Source: Minisyncoccota bacterium (GTDB lineage Bacteria; Patescibacteriota; Minisyncoccia; Phycocordibacterales; UBA1006). From it: a DNA stretch of 64,000 nt. Positions 4,385-48,117 of this stretch are shown here, piece by piece. The stretch covers positions 14,115 through 78,114 of the forward strand of contig JAJOIF010000006.1 in the NCBI GenBank assembly GCA_021209525.1, read 5' to 3'. The notes below the pieces were generated by a model that searched no databases, had not been told where the DNA came from, and saw only the letters and a list, made by a program, of their open reading frames with translations. Position numbers and translations under genes: made by a program. Each line of letters begins with the position of its first letter. The stretch's first letter is position 1.

Positions 4385-4454
4385 AAGAGAGGGGAAACAT
4401 CAAGTATCAAATTATAAATCCCAAATAAATTCCAAATTACAAATCTTAAAATAC

Positions 4455-4478
4455 AAAAACCGGTTATGCCGGTTTTTT
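4455..4478 (+). terminator. rho-independent terminator (aaaaaccggttatgccggtttttt)
   Basis: GC hairpin ccggttatgccgg followed by T-run, downstream of the SIMPL gene. Confidence 0.7.
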
Positions 4479-4516
4479 GTGTTTTATCCTTGTTTTTGGG
4501 TCTTGGAACTTAGAAT

Positions 4517-4580
4517 TTCTTTGTATCTTGTATCTTGTATCTTGTATCTTGTATCTTGTATCTTGTATCTTGTATCTTGC
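4517..4580. repeat. tandem heptamer array (TCTTGTA, about 8 copies)
   Basis: Perfect 7-bp periodicity seen directly. Track ORFs 4477/4479 translate it as LYLVSCILYLVSC, which is an artefact. Confidence 0.9.
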
Positions 4581-4725
4581 TTTGCTCGCTGCAGTGAAGC
4601 GAAGGCGAGTATCTTTTCAATACCCTGCTCGTCCCAGCAGGTTCAGCGACGCGTTCTCCCTAAAAACTTGCATAAATTTTTATTCATTATATTATGCAAT
4701 AAAGATAACCTTAAAATATGTACAT

Positions 4726-12498: not shown

Positions 12499-12891
12499 AT
12501 GAAAATTGTTATTACACATGCAACCACATTTCCTTTTGAGCAAGAGCTCTATGCTCCACTGATGGCTGCTGATTTTTTTTCCGAACATGAATTTCTCTTG
12601 CCACAGCGCACGGGACTTGCGCAACAAATTACCGAAGATATGATTCGCACAGCAGATGTGGTCATTTGCGAAGTGTCATTACCTTCAACAGGGCAAGGGA
12701 TTGAAATAGGGTGGGCGACCGCACATAAAACACCTTGTGTGTGTATACACAAAAAAGACGCTCATATTTCAGGTGCACTACAGTATGTGTGCGATGTTAT
12801 TATTCCATATAGAGATACGCAGGATATGGTAGAGCAGGTGAGGAGGGTGTGTGGGGCAAGCACCAAGCACCAAACTCCAAATAACAAGTAA
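12499..12891 (+). CDS. nucleoside 2-deoxyribosyltransferase / DNPH1-like protein (putative)
   Basis: Short flavodoxin-like layout with ADVVICEVS...GQGIEIGWA resembling the NDT/Rcl fold; context is a thymidylate cluster. The last ~11 codons overlap a repeat-element TIR. Confidence 0.4.
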   Translation: MKIVITHATTFPFEQELYAPLMAADFFSEHEFLLPQRTGLAQQITEDMIRTADVVICEVSLPSTGQGIEIGWATAHKTPCVCIHKKDAHISGALQYVCDVIIPYRDTQDMVEQVRRVCGASTKHQTPNNK

Positions 12892-13139
12892 CCACCTCTT
12901 CTCCCTTCGTCCGCCGTAGCCTTGGCGAAGGCGGAGTGTTTCTTGTAAATGAGCTATTGGCATACGTACCACAAAGTCTGTAAGCGGTACCACAGCCGCG
13001 AGATCCCGGAATTTGTTCGCATGCTCACAAATTCCGGGAATGAGTGGTTGTTCGTATTTTCCGGGAAGGAGTGGTTATTTGTAATTTGCCTGCCTCGTTA
13101 TACGGGGTTGTATCTTGTTATTTGGCGCTTGGTGCTTAT
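12857..13139. mobile_element. MITE-like non-autonomous element (~283 bp) bounded by ~30-bp imperfect terminal inverted repeats (CAAGCACCAAGCACCAAA..AAATAACAAG)
   Basis: Left TIR 12857-12893 and right TIR 13105-13139 are reverse complements. Interior carries AATTCCGGGAA(T/G)GAGTGGTT direct repeats and the CCGTAGCCTTGGCGAAGGCGGAG module shared with other copies. Confidence 0.6.
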
Positions 13140-13185
13140 AACTTACATTCTACAAAAACAACCATATACATGCTATACTAAATCC

Positions 13186-13881
13186 ATGCAAGGAAAACTC
13201 ATAGTTATTGACGGCACCGATGGATCAGGCAAAGCAACACAGGTCGCCCACCTCAAAGAGCGATTAGTTGCCGAAGGGTATCAAGTCGCATCGCTTGATT
13301 TTCCACGATACGAAGACAACTTTTTTGGATCATTTATTGGTGAATGTTTGCGTGGTGATCATGGTGATTGGGCAGGACTCAGTCCACGTATCGCATCTGT
13401 GGTATATGCCGCCGATCGTTTTGAATCTGCAGAAACTATTCGCGCATGGCTCGCTGAGGGCAGGGTAGTCATCTTGGATCGCTATGTTTCTTCTAATCAA
13501 ATTCATCAAGGAGGTAAAATTACTGAGACCCATGAGCGCAAGGCATTTCTCACATGGCTCGATACTATGGAGCATGACATTTTTAAAATACCGAGACCAG
13601 ATATTATTATATATCTTGATGTACCACTTGCGGTGAGTCAGGCATTACTTTCCCAAAAAAATACACAAGATACCAAGACATATCTCGCTGGCAAAAAAGA
13701 TCAGCATGAAAATGACCTCGAACATCTCACTGCTGCCAAAGAAGCAGGACTTGCCCTTATTGCAGAAATGAATAATTGGCATCGTATTAACTGTGCACCT
13801 GAGGGCGAGCTTTTGTCTATAGAAGAGGTGCATGAGATGGTGTACGGGGTGTTAAGTGAAGGAGGGTATCTTGTCTCTTAG
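13186..13881 (+). CDS. tmk: thymidylate kinase
   Basis: P-loop IVIDGTDGSGKATQ, DRY motif (VILDRYVSSN). Internal ATG 13186 chosen; upstream part of the track ORF is repeat-element sequence. Confidence 0.9.
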   Translation: MQGKLIVIDGTDGSGKATQVAHLKERLVAEGYQVASLDFPRYEDNFFGSFIGECLRGDHGDWAGLSPRIASVVYAADRFESAETIRAWLAEGRVVILDRYVSSNQIHQGGKITETHERKAFLTWLDTMEHDIFKIPRPDIIIYLDVPLAVSQALLSQKNTQDTKTYLAGKKDQHENDLEHLTAAKEAGLALIAEMNNWHRINCAPEGELLSIEEVHEMVYGVLSEGGYLVS

Positions 13882-16244: not shown

Positions 16245-17311
16245 ATGATAGAATTCTTAATACTCACTTTTGCCGTTATTATCGCATCAGGCATTTTTTC
16301 TGGAATTGAGGCCGCTCTCTTTTCAGTGTCACAAGCCCGTGCTCTCGTACTCAAAGAGCAGGGTATTGCCGGAGCAGACGCTCTCGTTACCCTCAAAACA
16401 AACCTCCAACAAGCAATTATCGTTATTGTTATTGGAAATAATATTGTAAATATTGCTGGATCTCTTTTTGTTGGGGTTGTGGCGGTGCGGCTTTTTGGAG
16501 ACCCGCTCATTGGACTCATTTCAGCCCTTTTAACACTTCTTATCATTATTTTTGGAGAAATCTTGCCAAAAACTATTGGTGAAAATAATGCAGAAAAATC
16601 AGCCTCGCTATTTCACGCCCGCTCACTGGACTTATCTTTATACTGAAGCCGCTCGTTATGTTGCTCGAGCAACTCACCAAGCGTTTTTCTACAGTACGCA
16701 AAATGGTTTCCGAAGAAGAGCTCTCTTTACTCTCAGAACTCGGACACCTCGAGGGAAGTATTGAAGAAGATGAGCGCGACATTATTCAGCGCGTCTTTAC
16801 GTTGAATGACATCACTGCATATGACATTATGACACCGCGCACTATGATGGTAGGGATTCACAAAGATACCGTGCTCGGTCACGCACGTGAAGAAATTTTT
16901 GAAATGTCTAATTCGCGTCTTCCGGTATATGGAGAAGATTATGATGACATTGTGGGTATGTGCTATATGCGCGATCTCTTGATTGCGCTCGCTCGTGATG
17001 AACACCAAAAGACTGTTTCTGATTATAGGAAAGACGTTCTCTATGTATCCGAAGATATGCGTGTTGATGATTTGCTCAGGTTATTCTTGTCTCGCCGAGG
17101 ACATATGGCTATTGTTAAAGATGAATTTGAAGGAACGAGTGGTCTCGTTACTCTTGAAGATGTCCTTGAACAACTCGTGGGAGAAATTGTTGATGAAACT
17201 GATGAGGTTGTAGATACACGCGAAGAAGCGAAACGCGAAGCCGAAGAGTCTGATTTGATTATTGAAGAATCAGAGGATAGGGAGGAAGAGGAAATTTCAA
17301 GTATCAAATAA
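16245..17311 (+). pseudogene. CNNM/CorC-HlyC family (DUF21 + 2xCBS + CorC_HlyC) transporter gene interrupted by a 1-nt frameshift near 16618-16625
   Basis: ORF 16245-16646 (DUF21 TM part) and ORF 16658-17311 (CBS pair + CorC_HlyC) read as one protein (..FHA-RPLTGLIFILKPLVMLLEQLTK..) if one base is restored in the CCC run at ~16619. Confidence 0.7.
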
Positions 17312-17354
17312 CAAATTCCAAGCCCATCAAACAGGGTGAGTGAGTAATAAATCC

Positions 17355-17866
17355 CAAGCACCAAATAACAAGATACAAACAAATTCCAATATAAAAAATA
17401 CAAAAATTACTCGACCTTCTTTATAATAGCAGAGAGAATGCGTCTAAGCGCTAAAGATTCCTCTTTCAGAGAATTGAGGAGTGCGCTGTTTCCTCCAGGA
17501 TCAACATGCAACAAAGAAAGCCAGTACTCTGTTTCGCGTGCTTCTCTGCGAGAGATTTTCATATATTTTTACATATCTTTTTTACTCAATCCTTCATTTG
17601 CTTCAATATAATTAGCCCCAATAGATGAGGATGAGCGAAGTAATTGCACATAGTATACTTTGTTAATAAATGTATTTTTGTTGGTAAAACATAATTACGA
17701 ACGTCTATTGCAAATCTTTGTGTGCGATCGATAAGGTCATATGTCATATGTGATCTAATATACACAAATTATATGAATATTAGATAAATTCAGTTTTGAG
17801 ATTCATATATTGATTCTTGGTATTTGTTTGGTATTTGTTATTTGGTGCTTGGTGCTTTTAAATTCC
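17355..17866. mobile_element. TIR-bounded element (~510 bp) of the CAAGCACCAAATAACAAG family carrying a decayed four-helix-bundle protein gene
   Basis: Left TIR 17355-17390 and inverted right TIR 17814-17866; an additional partial TIR at 17298-17324 overlaps the stop of the upstream gene. Confidence 0.55.
17407..17694 (-). pseudogene. four-helix-bundle (23S rRNA intervening-sequence type) protein, fragmented
   Basis: Minus-strand frames give ..VYYVQLLRSSSSIGANYIEANEGLSKKDM* followed by MKISRREARETEYWLSLLHVDPG.. (EYWL motif). Two frames, an internal stop and no N-terminal Met. Confidence 0.5.
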
Positions 17867-19125: not shown

Positions 19126-19777
19126 AGTATTGTTGTGTTTTTATGCTTAAAATCTTTAAAAACGTTATTGAGTATACTGATTTTCATTAAAAAAGCAAGT
19201 CGTTGGGTGCATATATGCTTATTATTTGCACCGCCAACCCAATCTGACCCCGTCTGACGATATTGATGGGGTAAGCGAGGCAGATTCGTATTTTCTGGAA
19301 ATAAGTGGTTTTTCTAAGCCTTTTTCTTTTTTAAGCAAAAAAGAAAAACAAAAGCTTCTCGAGGAACGCATTTTCTCTTAAAAATATTGCTCGTATTCTG
19401 TAATAGCAAGACTCGCTAGCGCTCAAACAGTTGCTATTACGACGAATACTCGCGTCATTTTTATATCTAAAATACGTGACCTCGAGGATGAAACATAGCG
19501 TCTATGTTTTTATGGTAAATACAAAATTTGTGTCTTGTATCTTGTTTTGCCTCGTCTGATGAGGCTTTGCTCGACTCGACACGCTCACTCCACTAAGCGG
19601 GGTTCAGCGTGTTGTAGCGAAGTGAAGGAGAGTATCTTGCTTGCCATGTTTGACGCGGTATCTTGTCATTTGCGCGCCTCTTATCATATTGCCAAGCTTG
19701 GCATATGAGGTACAAGGAAACGTGCGGGTGAGCCATGCACCTTGCATTTATGCCTCTTGCTGCGTAGGATAAGACAT

Positions 19778-26977: not shown

Positions 26978-27245
26978 AAAAGAAGACACACAAAAACCAC
27001 TCATATGAGTGGTTTTTGTGTGTATGATCTATATATGATTTGCAAAGAGTATTTTTCTGTGATAGTATGTATATACAACTGAATATGATTATAAAGATGT
27101 AGCAAGAGTACTGGCTCTATGACCTACAGGCAACCCTCATTATGAGAAGGTGCCCCATCCAGCCAACACAGTAATGTGTATGGAAAGATAAGAATAGTCC
27201 TTCTGTCTTTCTCATTATTATGAGATTTTTTTTATTATATTTTCT

Positions 27246-43299: not shown

Positions 43300-43306
43300 A
43301 GGCAGG

Positions 43307-43605
43307 CAAGCACCAAAAACCAAACAAATTACAACCCTGCTCAGCGAGACAAGAAACAAATAACCGCTCATTCCCGGAATACGCGAGGAAACGAGCGTAT
43401 GTCCGGGATCTCGTGTCTTGTTAATGAGTGCGCAACATAAGTGCCACTGAAACGAGACCCCGGACATTTTCTCCGTTAGCACTCCGAAAATTCCGGGGAA
43501 GAGGTGGTGGATCACAAATTCCGGGGAAGAAGTGATGATTCTTGAGATTTGTATTACTCGCCGTAGCGAAGCGAAGGAGAGGAATTTGGAATTTGGTGCT
43601 TGGTC
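43307..43605. mobile_element. MITE-like element (~299 bp), same family as 12857-13139
   Basis: Left end CAAGCACCAAAAACCAAACAAATT, right end reverse complement of GACCAAGCACCAAATTCCAAATTC. Interior has ATTCCGGGAA/AAATTCCGGGGAAGA direct repeats, a 13-bp-stem hairpin (ATGTCCGGGATCTCG...CGAGACCCCGGACAT) and the CCGTAGCGAAGCGAAGGAGAG module. Confidence 0.55.
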
Positions 43606-43666
43606 GGTCACCTCCCATATGCTATACTAAAATCATCACTTATTAGGTATTAACGAGTATTTTTAT

Positions 43667-47628: not shown

Positions 47629-47683
47629 AACGTTCGTACAATACTATATATTAAGCAATAAAGCAAAAGATAAGCAAATAATA

Positions 47684-47712
47684 CGATACCCGGGGCAGAG
47701 CCCCGGGTATCG
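47684..47712. promoter_or_regulatory. perfect 12-bp-stem palindrome (CGATACCCGGGGC-AGA-GCCCCGGGTATCG) in the typA/K-channel divergent region
   Basis: Seen directly; not positioned as a terminator for either flanking gene. Confidence 0.5.
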
Positions 47713-47877
47713 CCTTCACTCAAAAAACGTTCGCACAATACTATGTATTTGCTCACAAAGTAAAAGATGCGTAAGTAGGTGCATTGCCTCGAGGTAAGAT
47801 TCTCAAGGTATTATCCTTACTCAAAAATATTCGCACAATACTATGTATTTGCTCACAAAGTAAAAGATACGTAAGTA
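47713..47877. repeat. two ~64-bp direct repeats (47713-47777 and 47815-47877, ~95 percent identical, period 102 bp)
   Basis: CCTT(C)ACTCAAAAA..TTCGCACAATACTATGTATTTGCTCACAAAGTAAAAGAT(G/A)CGTAAGTA present twice. Confidence 0.85.
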
Positions 47878-48117
47878 ATACATTACCTCAAAGCATATTC
47901 ACCAAACAATCGAACAAGCCATTTATTATTTAACCGACGCAGAGTTCCTGAGAATACATGAATTACACCCGGGCTTTGCACGGGTGTATTACCCTTACTC
48001 AACACAAAGTTCTTATGTGGTAAGGTGTGTGTTTATACTACCAAACACATTGTTGTTATTTATGAGCTATTAGTCAGTATTTGGTTGCTTGCTCTTCATG
48101 ATGTATACTAGAAACAT

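Follow-up and report, generated by a model that had tools for sequence, protein, structure and literature searches.

We analyzed a 64-kb stretch of a Candidatus Pacebacteria genome (the window, by which the whole stretch is meant), in which a 283-bp element bounded by inverted repeats lies at the 3' end of an NDT-like gene and upstream of tmk (Table 1). No credible ORF was found inside the element. Our inverted-repeat search gave two arms of 32 nt (12865–12896 and 13106–13137) that are 84% complementary, which bears out the inverted repeats of about 30 bp that an initial annotation had placed at its borders. The left-arm string CAAGCACCAAGCACCAAACTCCAAATAACAAGTAACC begins at 12857, and the right-arm string GGTTGTATCTTGTTATTTGGCGCTTGGTGCTTATAAC occupies 13106–13142. 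A 24-nt arm pattern, searched with up to three mismatches, occurred at three sites in the 64-kb window, whereas it occurred at none in 100 shuffles. The predicted RNA fold of the 296-nt focal stretch (−115 kcal/mol, z = −6.0) pairs the arms with each other. Because a T-run is absent 3' of the focal stem, it is not a canonical intrinsic terminator. All three assemblies of the species carry the element, and a 1-nt indel in the right arm separates two of them.

Table 1. Coordinates of the focal element, its neighbors and related sequences in the window.
Feature	Position	Strand	Remarks
Cargo-less hairpin	4398–4579		A+C arm, terminator-like small hairpin in the loop, G+T arm
NDT-like gene, 130 aa	12499–12891	+	Codons 120–130 and the TAA stop come from the left arm
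Left arm	12858–12896	+	A+C-rich degenerate heptamer array, AAGCACC AAGCACC AAACTCC AAATAAC AAGTAAC C...
Nested small GC hairpin module	12910–12935	+	TCCGCC-loop-GGCGGA
Interior module	12987–13097	+	GTACCAC...CGAGATCCCGGA-loop-TTCCGGGAA palindrome (13004–13039) plus direct repeats (13032–13085)
Right arm	13104–13137	+	G+T-rich, complementary to the heptamer array
TGCTATACT	13171–13179	+	Extended −10-like box of downstream tmk (13186–13881)
Solo array	17294–17335	+	Gives the CNNM/CorC gene its last ~5 codons (ISSIK) and stop
Sibling element	17354–17857		47-nt inverted repeat, 79%; downstream of rplT
Degenerate interior and GC modules, G+T-type heptamers	19280–19680	+	616-nt gap upstream of infC
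Second full-length copy	43305–43604	+	After the response-regulator stop (43299), before LemA (43667)

The interior holds both the direct repeats and the TCCGCC...GGCGGA module that had been noted there. The direct repeats are 27 nt each (13032–13058 and 13059–13085) and 85% identical, and hairpins of the TCCGCC/GGCGGA type are also nested in arrays of other phyla (loci L039, L060, L063 and L096). The interior module is homologous to 43441–43560 and to an arm-less copy at L128:13485–13574, and interior modules were found without arms elsewhere in the same genome. The focal element is a mosaic of modules. When the external loci were searched for the focal interior, the matches never exceeded 24 nt, and the interior is thus lineage-specific. 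We considered TGCTATACT as a possible part of the element and rejected it, since most of its seven occurrences in the window lie just 5' of gene starts on the ORF map. It looks like a host promoter consensus for the same reason, and a box of this type also follows the second full copy, at 43620.

The NDT-like protein scored 27.7 bits against PF05014, just below the cut-off of 28.8, and is identical to a Candidatus Pacebacteria protein (P0001) named nucleoside 2-deoxyribosyltransferase. Its ORF ends in VCGASTKHQTPNNK and a stop; the left arm encodes its final 11 codons together with the TAA, as the initial annotation had read them. Among only six homologues, which are at most 61% identical, lack arrays, stand in other gene contexts and are not syntenic, five stop at alignment columns 121–125, about four residues or less from the arm junction, whereas in the sixth the tail is an unrelated one and overlaps a TfoX gene. 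The CNNM/CorC gene gave a similar result. Here CAAGTATCAAATAA at 17298 supplies the ending ...SSIK and the stop, and the array reported at this site is real. The ending ISSIK was found in none of 24 CNNM/CorC homologues (61–80% identical), the nearest of which ends in ...EESEEREEEKE. We examined the loci of two CNNM/CorC relatives and found plain terminators after the stop and no array; their downstream genes are different. Near-identical arm-encoded tails (…NSKHQAPNNK and stop) are borne by unrelated proteins in other phyla. The termini of the homologues, as far as they were compared, show the tails to be non-ancestral. The view that members of the repeat family lie on or beside the 3' ends of genes and can rewrite C-termini is supported, and the pattern recurs in other phyla. 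The NDT-like tail itself is most likely an incidental by-product.

Related copies were found at several other places in the window. The copy at 43305 is collinear with the focal element over its full length and has the same orientation; the two are about 65–70% identical, as estimated from the alignment. The arms of the 17354 element enclose a frameshifted PF05635 four-helix-bundle gene on the minus strand (about 17407–17747; PF05635 E = 1.4 × 10−12, PDB 2RLD E = 5.6 × 10−11), and the focal loop contains no PF05635 ORF. The outer right arm of the 4398 hairpin ends in (TTGTATC)x8.4. Repeat sequence had been noted before at 4398–4461 after a stop and at 43307–43337 after the response-regulator stop, and it is present at both sites. 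The full copy at 43305, the arm pair at 17354 and the complete extent of the 4398 hairpin had been missed. In about 74 kb examined, we counted two full copies plus fragments.

The arm sequence is not confined to this genome. The arm 21-mer was found in at least 120 loci, against about 10 expected by chance, and its carriers among the matches listed include Bacteroidota, CPR, Omnitrophota, Nitrospirota, Planctomycetota and others; cyanobacteria are absent from the 120 listed. Among viral contigs, the arm pattern is present in only three. From the outer end, the arm consensus reads AAATTCC-AAGCACC-AAGCACC-AAATAAC-AAAYAAA. The units are degenerate and not identical, the outer boundary of the array is sharp, and CAA-CAA spacings peak at 7, 14, 21 and 28 nt (465, 318, 188 and 91). 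Flanking heptamers, which we used as the array criterion, fitted the consensus at 63/119 and 69/120 of the sites listed (0.7% and 2% by chance). Array scores based on A+C content, in-phase AA and k-mers performed poorly, because the arrays are short and their phase slips. A partner arm was detectable at 53 of 105 sites among the matches listed (about 7% in the control), and about half of the arm sites show none. The arrays in the same set adjoin gene 3' ends 71 times and gene 5' ends 26 times, and many begin 0–10 nt past a stop codon. The heptamer AAATTCC precedes the 21-mer at 26 of the listed sites, across unrelated phyla. An integron attC-like reading was rejected on sequence inspection, because the units do not match the RYYYAAC/GTTRRRY cores. 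Rfam 15 gave no match at E ≤ 10 on 12800–13200, and at the gathering score no match overlapped the arrays, whether in the window or in 18 external loci. A full-text literature search with the arm sequence, and with PF05635 or heptamer contexts, did not turn up any account of the arm family, which apparently has neither a published description nor a curated RNA family.

We then related the arms to PF05635. In all seven external cases examined, the PF05635 gene lies between an A+C array on its upstream side and a G+T array on its downstream side: three loci were reached via the arm pattern (L066, L123 and L094), and all four loci picked by the protein alone (L133, L134, L136 and L137) were array-flanked. 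Between the sister species represented by L037 and L066, the arm was kept and the cargo exchanged. The PF05635 cargo is 46–62% identical between CPR and Flavobacteriia. Among the viral contigs, 55 pattern matches were obtained for the PF05635 profile and none was confirmed. Only 3 of the 120 arm sites listed carry PF05635, and therefore the link could be co-location and not common descent, the arms and the gene both favoring one kind of site.

The closest counterparts of these elements are intervening sequences (IVS) of 23S rRNA. In Coxiella, the IVS is closed by a terminal stem of 28 bp, carries an S23p ORF in its loop with tandem heptamers ahead of that ORF, and undergoes cleavage by RNase III; 23S rRNA IVS bearing S23p/PF05635 occur in Coxiella, Leptospira, Brucella and Xanthomonas (PMC4990558). 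The likeness lies in stem-forming inverted repeats, a PF05635 ORF of about 110–120 aa in the loop, tandem heptamers beside the ORF, an ORF that often decays and an origin suspected to be selfish, and this plan is matched exactly by the 17354 element and by the seven external loci. However, the elements described here are intergenic or lie on the 3' ends of protein genes, with one inside a pntAB-pntB operon; the focal copy is ORF-less, and the arms consist of long heptamer arrays whose consensus holds across phyla. The window contains no rRNA, and no element was found in 23S helix 25 or 45.

Mazel and colleagues reportedly described the cyanobacterial STRR heptamer sequences in 1990. Among the array units only AATGACC resembles STRR; we take it to be a phase-shifted reverse complement of STRR2 (TTGGTCA). 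The likeness to STRR otherwise consists in tandem 7-nt units that form hairpins and lie between the genes of one operon or in stable-RNA genes (PMC2670836; Vioque 1997 via PMC2858038). However, STRR are described as repeating a single unit almost perfectly, and from heterocystous cyanobacteria, whereas the present arrays mix degenerate units, have a defined outer end, form inverted pairs with cargo, have a CPR host and occur in many phyla. The Correia/NEMIS elements of Neisseria are small inverted-repeat elements at gene ends that are co-transcribed, have their hairpins cut by RNase III and can alter the 3' ends of ORFs. By analogy, the focal element probably works like Correia/MITE-gene fusions; however, the inverted repeats of Correia elements are fixed at 26 bp, a TA duplication accompanies them and they are limited to one genus, whereas here we find no duplication, array ends and many phyla. 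Ogata and colleagues are said to have shown in 2000 that Rickettsia palindromic elements become coding sequence without destroying the host protein; those elements lie in frame within genes and are wholly translated, whereas only the first arm heptamers are translated here, as a short C-terminal tail. TAACTGA heptamer repeats occur in Beggiatoaceae, Cyanobacteria and Bacteroidetes, mostly in intergenic regions and in some cases over an upstream stop codon; like the present arrays, they are found in distant lineages and horizontal spread is suspected (PMC4679880). However, they have another unit, form direct and not inverted arrays, lie just 5' of start codons and have no cargo. BIME/REP and REPINs are intergenic mosaics of small palindromic modules, as is the focal interior, but REPINs are tied to RAYT transposases and species-specific REP (PMC3116915).

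The initial annotation called the focal element MITE-like. As a classical MITE, it would descend by deletion from a DNA transposon, be non-autonomous and rely in trans on a transposase that binds the ~30-bp terminal inverted repeats, and its fusion to the gene end would be an accident of insertion. The part of this that stands is the small size, the terminal inverted repeats and the lack of an ORF; the intergenic position and the presence of at least two full copies plus fragments within 64 kb also agree with it. However, a target-site duplication was found at none of four copies: the 12-nt outer flanks of the focal copy and of the 4398 hairpin have no common word, those of the 43305 copy have only GT in common, and the TAAAT word at the PF05635 element is itself part of array-type sequence. 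Next to the arms, neither a transposase nor a longer element with such ends was seen in the window or in the inspected external loci, and the sole recurrent cargo between arms is the four-helix-bundle protein of 110–120 aa. In addition, the supposed terminal repeats are variable heptamer arrays, common to elements of differing content and to genomes of many phyla, and not fixed ends, the interior modules are independent of the arms, and the identity between the two full copies is low by our estimate. We therefore consider a classical MITE unlikely; in architecture, the element comes closest to a hairpin cassette of the IVS-like or STRR-like kind, and not to a transposase-mobilised MITE. It might also be supposed that nothing here is mobile, and that STRR-like arrays grew in place by slippage as host structures that stabilise or terminate transcripts, their likeness across phyla being convergence on an unstructured A/C-rich strand that pairs with a G/U-rich one. 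The strong bias to gene 3' ends, the perfect (TTGTATC)x8.4 run, which resembles slippage, the right-arm indel between two assemblies and the STRR hairpins between co-transcribed cyanobacterial genes, for which a role in transcript stability has been proposed (PMC2670836), are in line with this idea. The cross-phylum identity of a low-complexity, A+C-rich 21-mer could indeed be partly convergence under a shared constraint. However, the recurrence of one 21-mer, of the preceding AAATTCC and of the outer boundary in unrelated phyla is hard to obtain by independent slippage, discrete cargos, including the conserved PF05635 gene, do not suit a host structure, and the nearest CNNM/CorC relatives have ordinary terminators. 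An origin in the host alone thus seems improbable.

We also considered that the conserved interior (GTGCCAC...CGAGAYCCCGGA...TTCCGGGRA) is the functional part, as a structured non-coding RNA or a cis-regulatory RNA for tmk and LemA, with the arms only closing the structure. The fold z-scores of the two copies (−6.0 and −4.7) agree with this explanation, as does a conserved CCCGGA/TCCGGG helix found round a variable loop in three copies, with two pairs changed on both sides; both full copies also lie upstream of a gene with its own promoter. Nevertheless, the explanation is very improbable: Rfam gave no match, the RNAalifold covariation term is only −1.1 kcal/mol for three sequences, the downstream genes (tmk, LemA and a peptidase) are unrelated, and the module is shuffled between copies, the GCCGTAGC...GCGAAGG unit being at the left of one copy but at the right of the other. 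Related GC-rich double-hairpin repeats are also present in unrelated metagenome contigs. When metagenomes were scanned with the interior two-block pattern, most of what matched was GC-rich coding DNA hit by chance, along with one recurrent gut gene; the double-hairpin plan appeared only in a small subset of the matches, whose number was too low and whose diversity was too high to test for covariation.

Our preferred reading, which we hold to be probable, is that the focal feature is an ORF-less, mosaic member of an IVS-like family of hairpin cassettes. The arms of such cassettes are inverted arrays of degenerate 7-nt units, which in the full form bracket a PF05635 four-helix-bundle gene. The PF05635 cassettes share the protein family and the stem-plus-ORF plan of 23S rRNA IVS but are intergenic, beside gene 3' ends, and in the focal loop small GC-rich hairpin modules take the place of the gene. 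By an insertion or recombination event that we infer, the left arm probably came to lie at the stop codon of the NDT-like gene or took its place; translation therefore enters the array for 11 codons and halts at its TAA. When transcribed, the arms could pair into a stem of roughly 32–39 bp. By analogy with rRNA intervening sequences and the Neisseria Correia elements, this stem may serve as a substrate for RNase III or as a structure at the transcript end that keeps the upstream message apart from tmk, a gene with a promoter of its own. A further proposal, which we regard as speculative and rather unlikely, is that the arrays and PF05635 (Avd-like, pentameric) form one selfish system that has spread horizontally across bacterial phyla. 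The protein would recognise the 7-nt arrays, with each unit plausibly bound by one subunit, and would promote the upkeep or copying of the cassettes, and the far commoner ORF-less hairpins, the focal element included, would be non-autonomous derivatives.

Non-coding sequence that is recognisable across phyla is rare outside rRNA, tRNA and riboswitches, and the arms are such a case. They tie together the ORF-bearing IVS of 23S rRNA, the STRR heptamers and the abundant, functionless genes annotated as "four helix bundle protein". They also append short, near-identical tails (…KHQAPNNK) to unrelated proteins and cause spurious or extended ORF calls in the annotation of MAGs. Several carriers are flavobacteria available in culture, such as Flagellimonas halotolerans (L037), Aequorivita todarodis (L123) and Flavobacterium sp. 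DGU11 (L022), and both the RNase III hypothesis and the protein-binding one are therefore directly testable. If the selfish-system proposal is true, it would unite 23S IVS, STRR and 3'-end hairpins as one kind of element, and would give a function to PF05635, a family that has been without one since the 1990s.

Every string that the initial annotation quoted for the 283-bp element was found where it had been placed, and the NDT-like ORF (nucleoside 2-deoxyribosyltransferase-like) does end in …RRVCGASTKHQTPNNK, with its last 11 codons and TAA stop within the left arm. A repeat search placed the arms at 12865-12896 and 13106-13137 (32 nt, 84% complementary, spacing 209 nt) and found two 27-nt direct repeats and an 18+18-nt palindrome (13004-13039) in the interior. 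When up to 3 mismatches were allowed, the 24-nt arm pattern matched 3 sites in the window and 0 in 100 shuffles. Folded as RNA, the focal 296 nt reached −115.2 kcal/mol with both arms paired, compared with −84 ± 5 for shuffles (z = −6.0). The element can be split into separable units: its arms, the mini-hairpin TCCGCC…GGCGGA, and a palindrome (CCCGGA/TCCGGG) accompanied by the pair of direct repeats. Because such modules also occur apart, the element is a mosaic: the interior module GTGCCAC…CGAGATCCCGGA…TTCCGGGAATGAG lies without arms about 10 kb outside the window (L128/L129, 13485-13574). Taken by itself, the element is a small repeat in decay. The window holds more related copies than the initial annotation listed.

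Features of the window, with related elements and side observations
Position	Strand	Feature	Remarks
3571, 7301, 9927, 13171, 43620	+	TGCTATACT box	n = 7 in the window over both strands, mostly shortly 5' of gene starts
42359, 50808	-	TGCTATACT box
4398-4579		Cargo-less hairpin of the same class	Right (G+T) arm ends in perfect (TTGTATC)×8.4
4521-4579		(TTGTATC)×8.4 run	Outer portion of that G+T arm; looks like a recent slippage expansion of a single array unit
12499-12891	+	NDT-like gene	130 aa
12857-13139		Focal element	283 bp
12949-13881		Open frame	Starts within the focal element, continues through tmk in its frame; 310 aa vs annotated 231 aa
16245-16646, 16658-17311		CNNM/CorC-family gene	Two ORFs
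17354-17857		Sibling element	Focal-type arms (47 nt, 79% complementary); 405-nt interior
17407-17747	-	PF05635 pseudogene	One frameshift and one in-frame stop
19130-19740		616-nt gap preceding infC	Mosaic built from G+T heptamers, degenerate copies of the interior modules and mini-hairpins of the CCCCGTCTGACGGGG type
19280-19680		Degenerate modules	Within that gap
26986-27023		Perfect 38-nt palindrome	Just 5' of the riboswitch
27086-27194		SAM riboswitch	RF00162, 56.8 bits
34899-34971		74-nt imperfect palindrome	Outside the heptamer family
43305-43604		Collinear homologue of the whole focal element	Same orientation; identity ~65-70% (estimate from alignment); fold z = −4.7; between response-regulator stop and LemA
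47629-47890		Intergenic tandem duplication	Period roughly 100 nt, 75% identity; outside the heptamer family

The arms are arrays of degenerate heptamers (e.g., CAAGCAC·CAAGCAC·CAAATAA·CAAGATA·CAAACAA…), not one fixed terminal sequence. A scan with the 21-mer AAGCACCAARNNCCAAATAAC over GTDB species, each represented by one genome, gave at least 120 loci, against an estimated ~10 chance matches. Among the matches listed, approximate counts from record titles were ~45 Bacteroidota, including cultured Flavobacteriia, ~30 CPR (Saccharibacteria, Taylorbacteria, others), 9 Omnitrophota, 5 Nitrospirota, 6 Planctomycetota/PVC, 3 Aminicenantes, ~10 Desulfobacterota, Myxococcota or Bdellovibrionota, 2 archaeal MAGs, and one each of several further groups. 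About five listed matches (Weissella rplX, Sporosarcina, Shewanella, Rhodospirillales) look like plain coding hits, which is near chance expectation. CAA-CAA spacing peaked at 7, 14, 21, and 28. Among the matches listed, the array consensus was matched by the upstream heptamer at 63/119 sites (chance 0.7%) and by the downstream one at 69/120 (chance 2%); the heptamer directly 5' of the 21-mer was AAATTCC in 26 sites. Conservation among these matches drops sharply 7 nt 5' of the 21-mer, and the arrays therefore have a defined outer end. A complementary G+T-rich arm was found at 53/105 sites, compared with ~7% in the control, with loops of ~20 to ~460 nt. Like the focal element, arrays in several phyla have small GC hairpins (TCCGCC-loop-GGCGGA type) nested within them.

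Variants of this plan were also seen. Seven loci (L026, L061, L098, L099 in Omnitrophota; L034, L074, L077 in Saccharibacteria) carry lineage-specific small hairpins or leader blocks between host stop and first heptamer, such as CTCAACTTTGGC…GCCAAAGTTGAG, which suggests that individual genomes have composite forms of the element of their own. In Planktosalinus lacus (L088, ~4640-4720), the full 21-nt unit AAGCACCAAATTCCAAATAAC stands in at least 4 tandem copies, a higher-order 21-nt period. The arm-less interior copy adjoins a (GCGTGC)n/(GT)n microsatellite (L128/L129, 13400-13470) between proS and a peptidase M16 gene. Five metagenome contigs (L205, L221, L225, L235, L245) hold a GC-rich repeat, GAGAGCCGGGATCTCGATCAGG…CGAGAYCCCGGATAGCCGC…TTCCGGGRAGCGG, twice on one of them, with a double-hairpin plan like the focal interior; small palindromic repeats of this kind may form a broader family.

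The arrays are associated with gene ends. Among the matches listed, a same-strand ORF of ≥100 aa adjoins the A+C arm with its 3' end 71 times and with its 5' end 26 times. Stops cluster just 5' of the 21-mer, often 0-10 nt ahead of the first heptamer (e.g., taa|ATTCC|AAGCACC). At no fewer than eight of the listed loci, the host ORF enters the array and terminates inside it, giving the endings …NSKHQAPNNK, …NSKHQAPNSK, …KSQAPSTK, …ENSKIQAPKSK, …EVPNNK, and …NSKHQAPNNKQITSTKIQTI; the focal …ASTKHQTPNNK is a further instance. These proteins are mutually unrelated, and their hosts are Omnitrophota, Saccharibacteria, Flavobacteriia, and Saprospiraceae. The initial annotation was therefore right in its general statement that this repeat class preferentially sits at or on gene 3' ends and can rewrite C-termini, and the pattern extends far outside the focal genome.

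We compared the termini of homologues. The NDT-like protein has only six (37-56% identity); five stop at alignment columns 121-125, no more than about 4 residues from …RRVCG|ASTK…, and the sixth, P0002, has an unrelated tail from overlap with a downstream TfoX-like gene. No array follows the stop at the P0002 or P0003 locus. CNNM/CorC homologues are abundant, and none of the 24 examined (61-80% identical) has the …ISSIK ending; the closest end in …EESEEREEEKE or …EESEDREQE. An ordinary hairpin plus T-run terminator follows the CNNM/CorC stop in both relatives' loci examined. Thus, both tails are array-encoded and, among the homologues compared, unique to this lineage. Judged from these homologues, which lie at non-syntenic loci and whose C-termini differ in any case, the comparison shows the tails to be non-ancestral.

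The interior of the sibling element is a frameshifted minus-strand gene for a PF05635 "23S rRNA-intervening sequence protein" (E = 1.4 × 10−12), which also matches PDB 2RLD. In the Coxiella 23S rRNA intervening sequence (IVS; 428-444 nt), terminal inverted repeats pair into a 28-bp stem whose loop holds an S23p (PF05635) ORF, with tandem heptamers just 5' of that ORF; the IVS is excised by RNase III and has long been suspected of descending from a mobile element (PMC4990558). The decay of the window gene resembles that reported for the S23p ORF of Coxiella. PF05635 also shares homology with Avd, which serves diversity-generating retroelements as their accessory protein (PMC10053308).

PF05635 is associated with the arms elsewhere. 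Among the matches listed, three of 120 arm sites (L066, L123, L094) enclose a PF05635 ORF that starts 30-110 nt within the A+C arm and ends just ahead of the G+T arm; these cargos are 59-62% identical mutually and 46-50% identical to the window pseudogene. The protein has 92 homologues at E < 1 × 10−10, named "four helix bundle protein" wherever the source gives a name. We chose four loci via the protein, with flanks not known beforehand (three Bacteroidota-like contigs and one Microgenomates genome), and all four had an A+C heptamer array directly upstream and a complementary G+T array directly downstream. Three lie between pntAB and pntB of the transhydrogenase operon (L133, L136, L137, Bacteroidota-like, ~1140-1660 in each; cargos 67-73% identical). 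The cassette ORF runs in the direction of the upstream host gene in 7/7 external cases; the window cassette is downstream of rplT. In the sister flavobacteria L037 and L066, flanks are ~95% identical by eye, and the left arm and arm-encoded tail are identical; one has PF05635 and the right arm, and the other ~170 nt of unrelated DNA. The arm is kept while the cargo is exchangeable.

Other heptamer arrays have been reported. [quoted passage not shown] Beggiatoaceae, Cyanobacteria, and Bacteroidetes share TAACTGA arrays, some of which extend over the stop codon of the preceding ORF (PMC4679880). A full-text search found neither our arm sequence nor PF05635 cassettes with such arms outside rRNA, and no Rfam family covers the arms in the window or in 18 external loci.

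The window (G+C 41.9%) matches MAGs of Candidatus Pacebacteria bacterium (CPR/Patescibacteria). Its NDT-like product is identical to P0001 in GCA_021208345.1 (160-kb contig) and GCA_021209085.1, and the downstream part of the contig is also present in GCA_021208725.1. The gene order is glyA, NDT-like, tmk, dut, argS, and CNNM/CorC-family, then rplT and infC on the opposite strand. The CNNM/CorC-family protein is intact (P0101, 355 aa) in another assembly of the species, so a frameshift or else an assembly variant accounts for its two-ORF state. TGCTATACT is probably the extended −10 promoter consensus of the host. Its tmk copy ends ~7 nt ahead of the ATG, which would leave the mRNA with little or no leader. 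The open frame at 12949-13881 could lead gene callers to start tmk too early, inside the focal element, and the Logan annotation places an 86-aa minus-strand ORF across it (L003, L004).

The observation in the initial annotation is confirmed, and its interpretation as MITE-like is partly supported. Against a classical MITE, the ends are variable arrays, no target-site duplication was seen at the element, no transposase partner turned up in the window or in the external loci inspected around the arm, and the interior modules can be separated, as the arm-less copy shows. Slippage clearly acts on the arrays, as in the (TTGTATC)×8.4 run and in a 1-nt indel of the right arm between assemblies, but purely in-place evolution by slippage is argued against by the same 21-mer, boundary, and cargo recurring across phyla. 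A discrete structured RNA in the focal interior is a weak candidate. With moderate confidence, we favor the view that the focal feature derives from an IVS-like hairpin cassette and is a mosaic that lacks an ORF. It would have joined the NDT-like gene at, or just 5' of, the native stop, with the C-terminal tail as an incidental by-product. In the transcript, the arms would pair into a long stem, which may be cleaved by RNase III or otherwise set the 3' end of the upstream message, and the downstream gene has a TGCTATACT box of its own as its probable promoter. The family membership and the PF05635 association are shown by the data, whereas this RNA processing, the way the family spreads, and a role for the PF05635 protein are inferred. 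The arms reveal a family of which we found no description in the literature: a conserved cross-phylum hairpin family linked to IVS/Avd-like four-helix-bundle genes.
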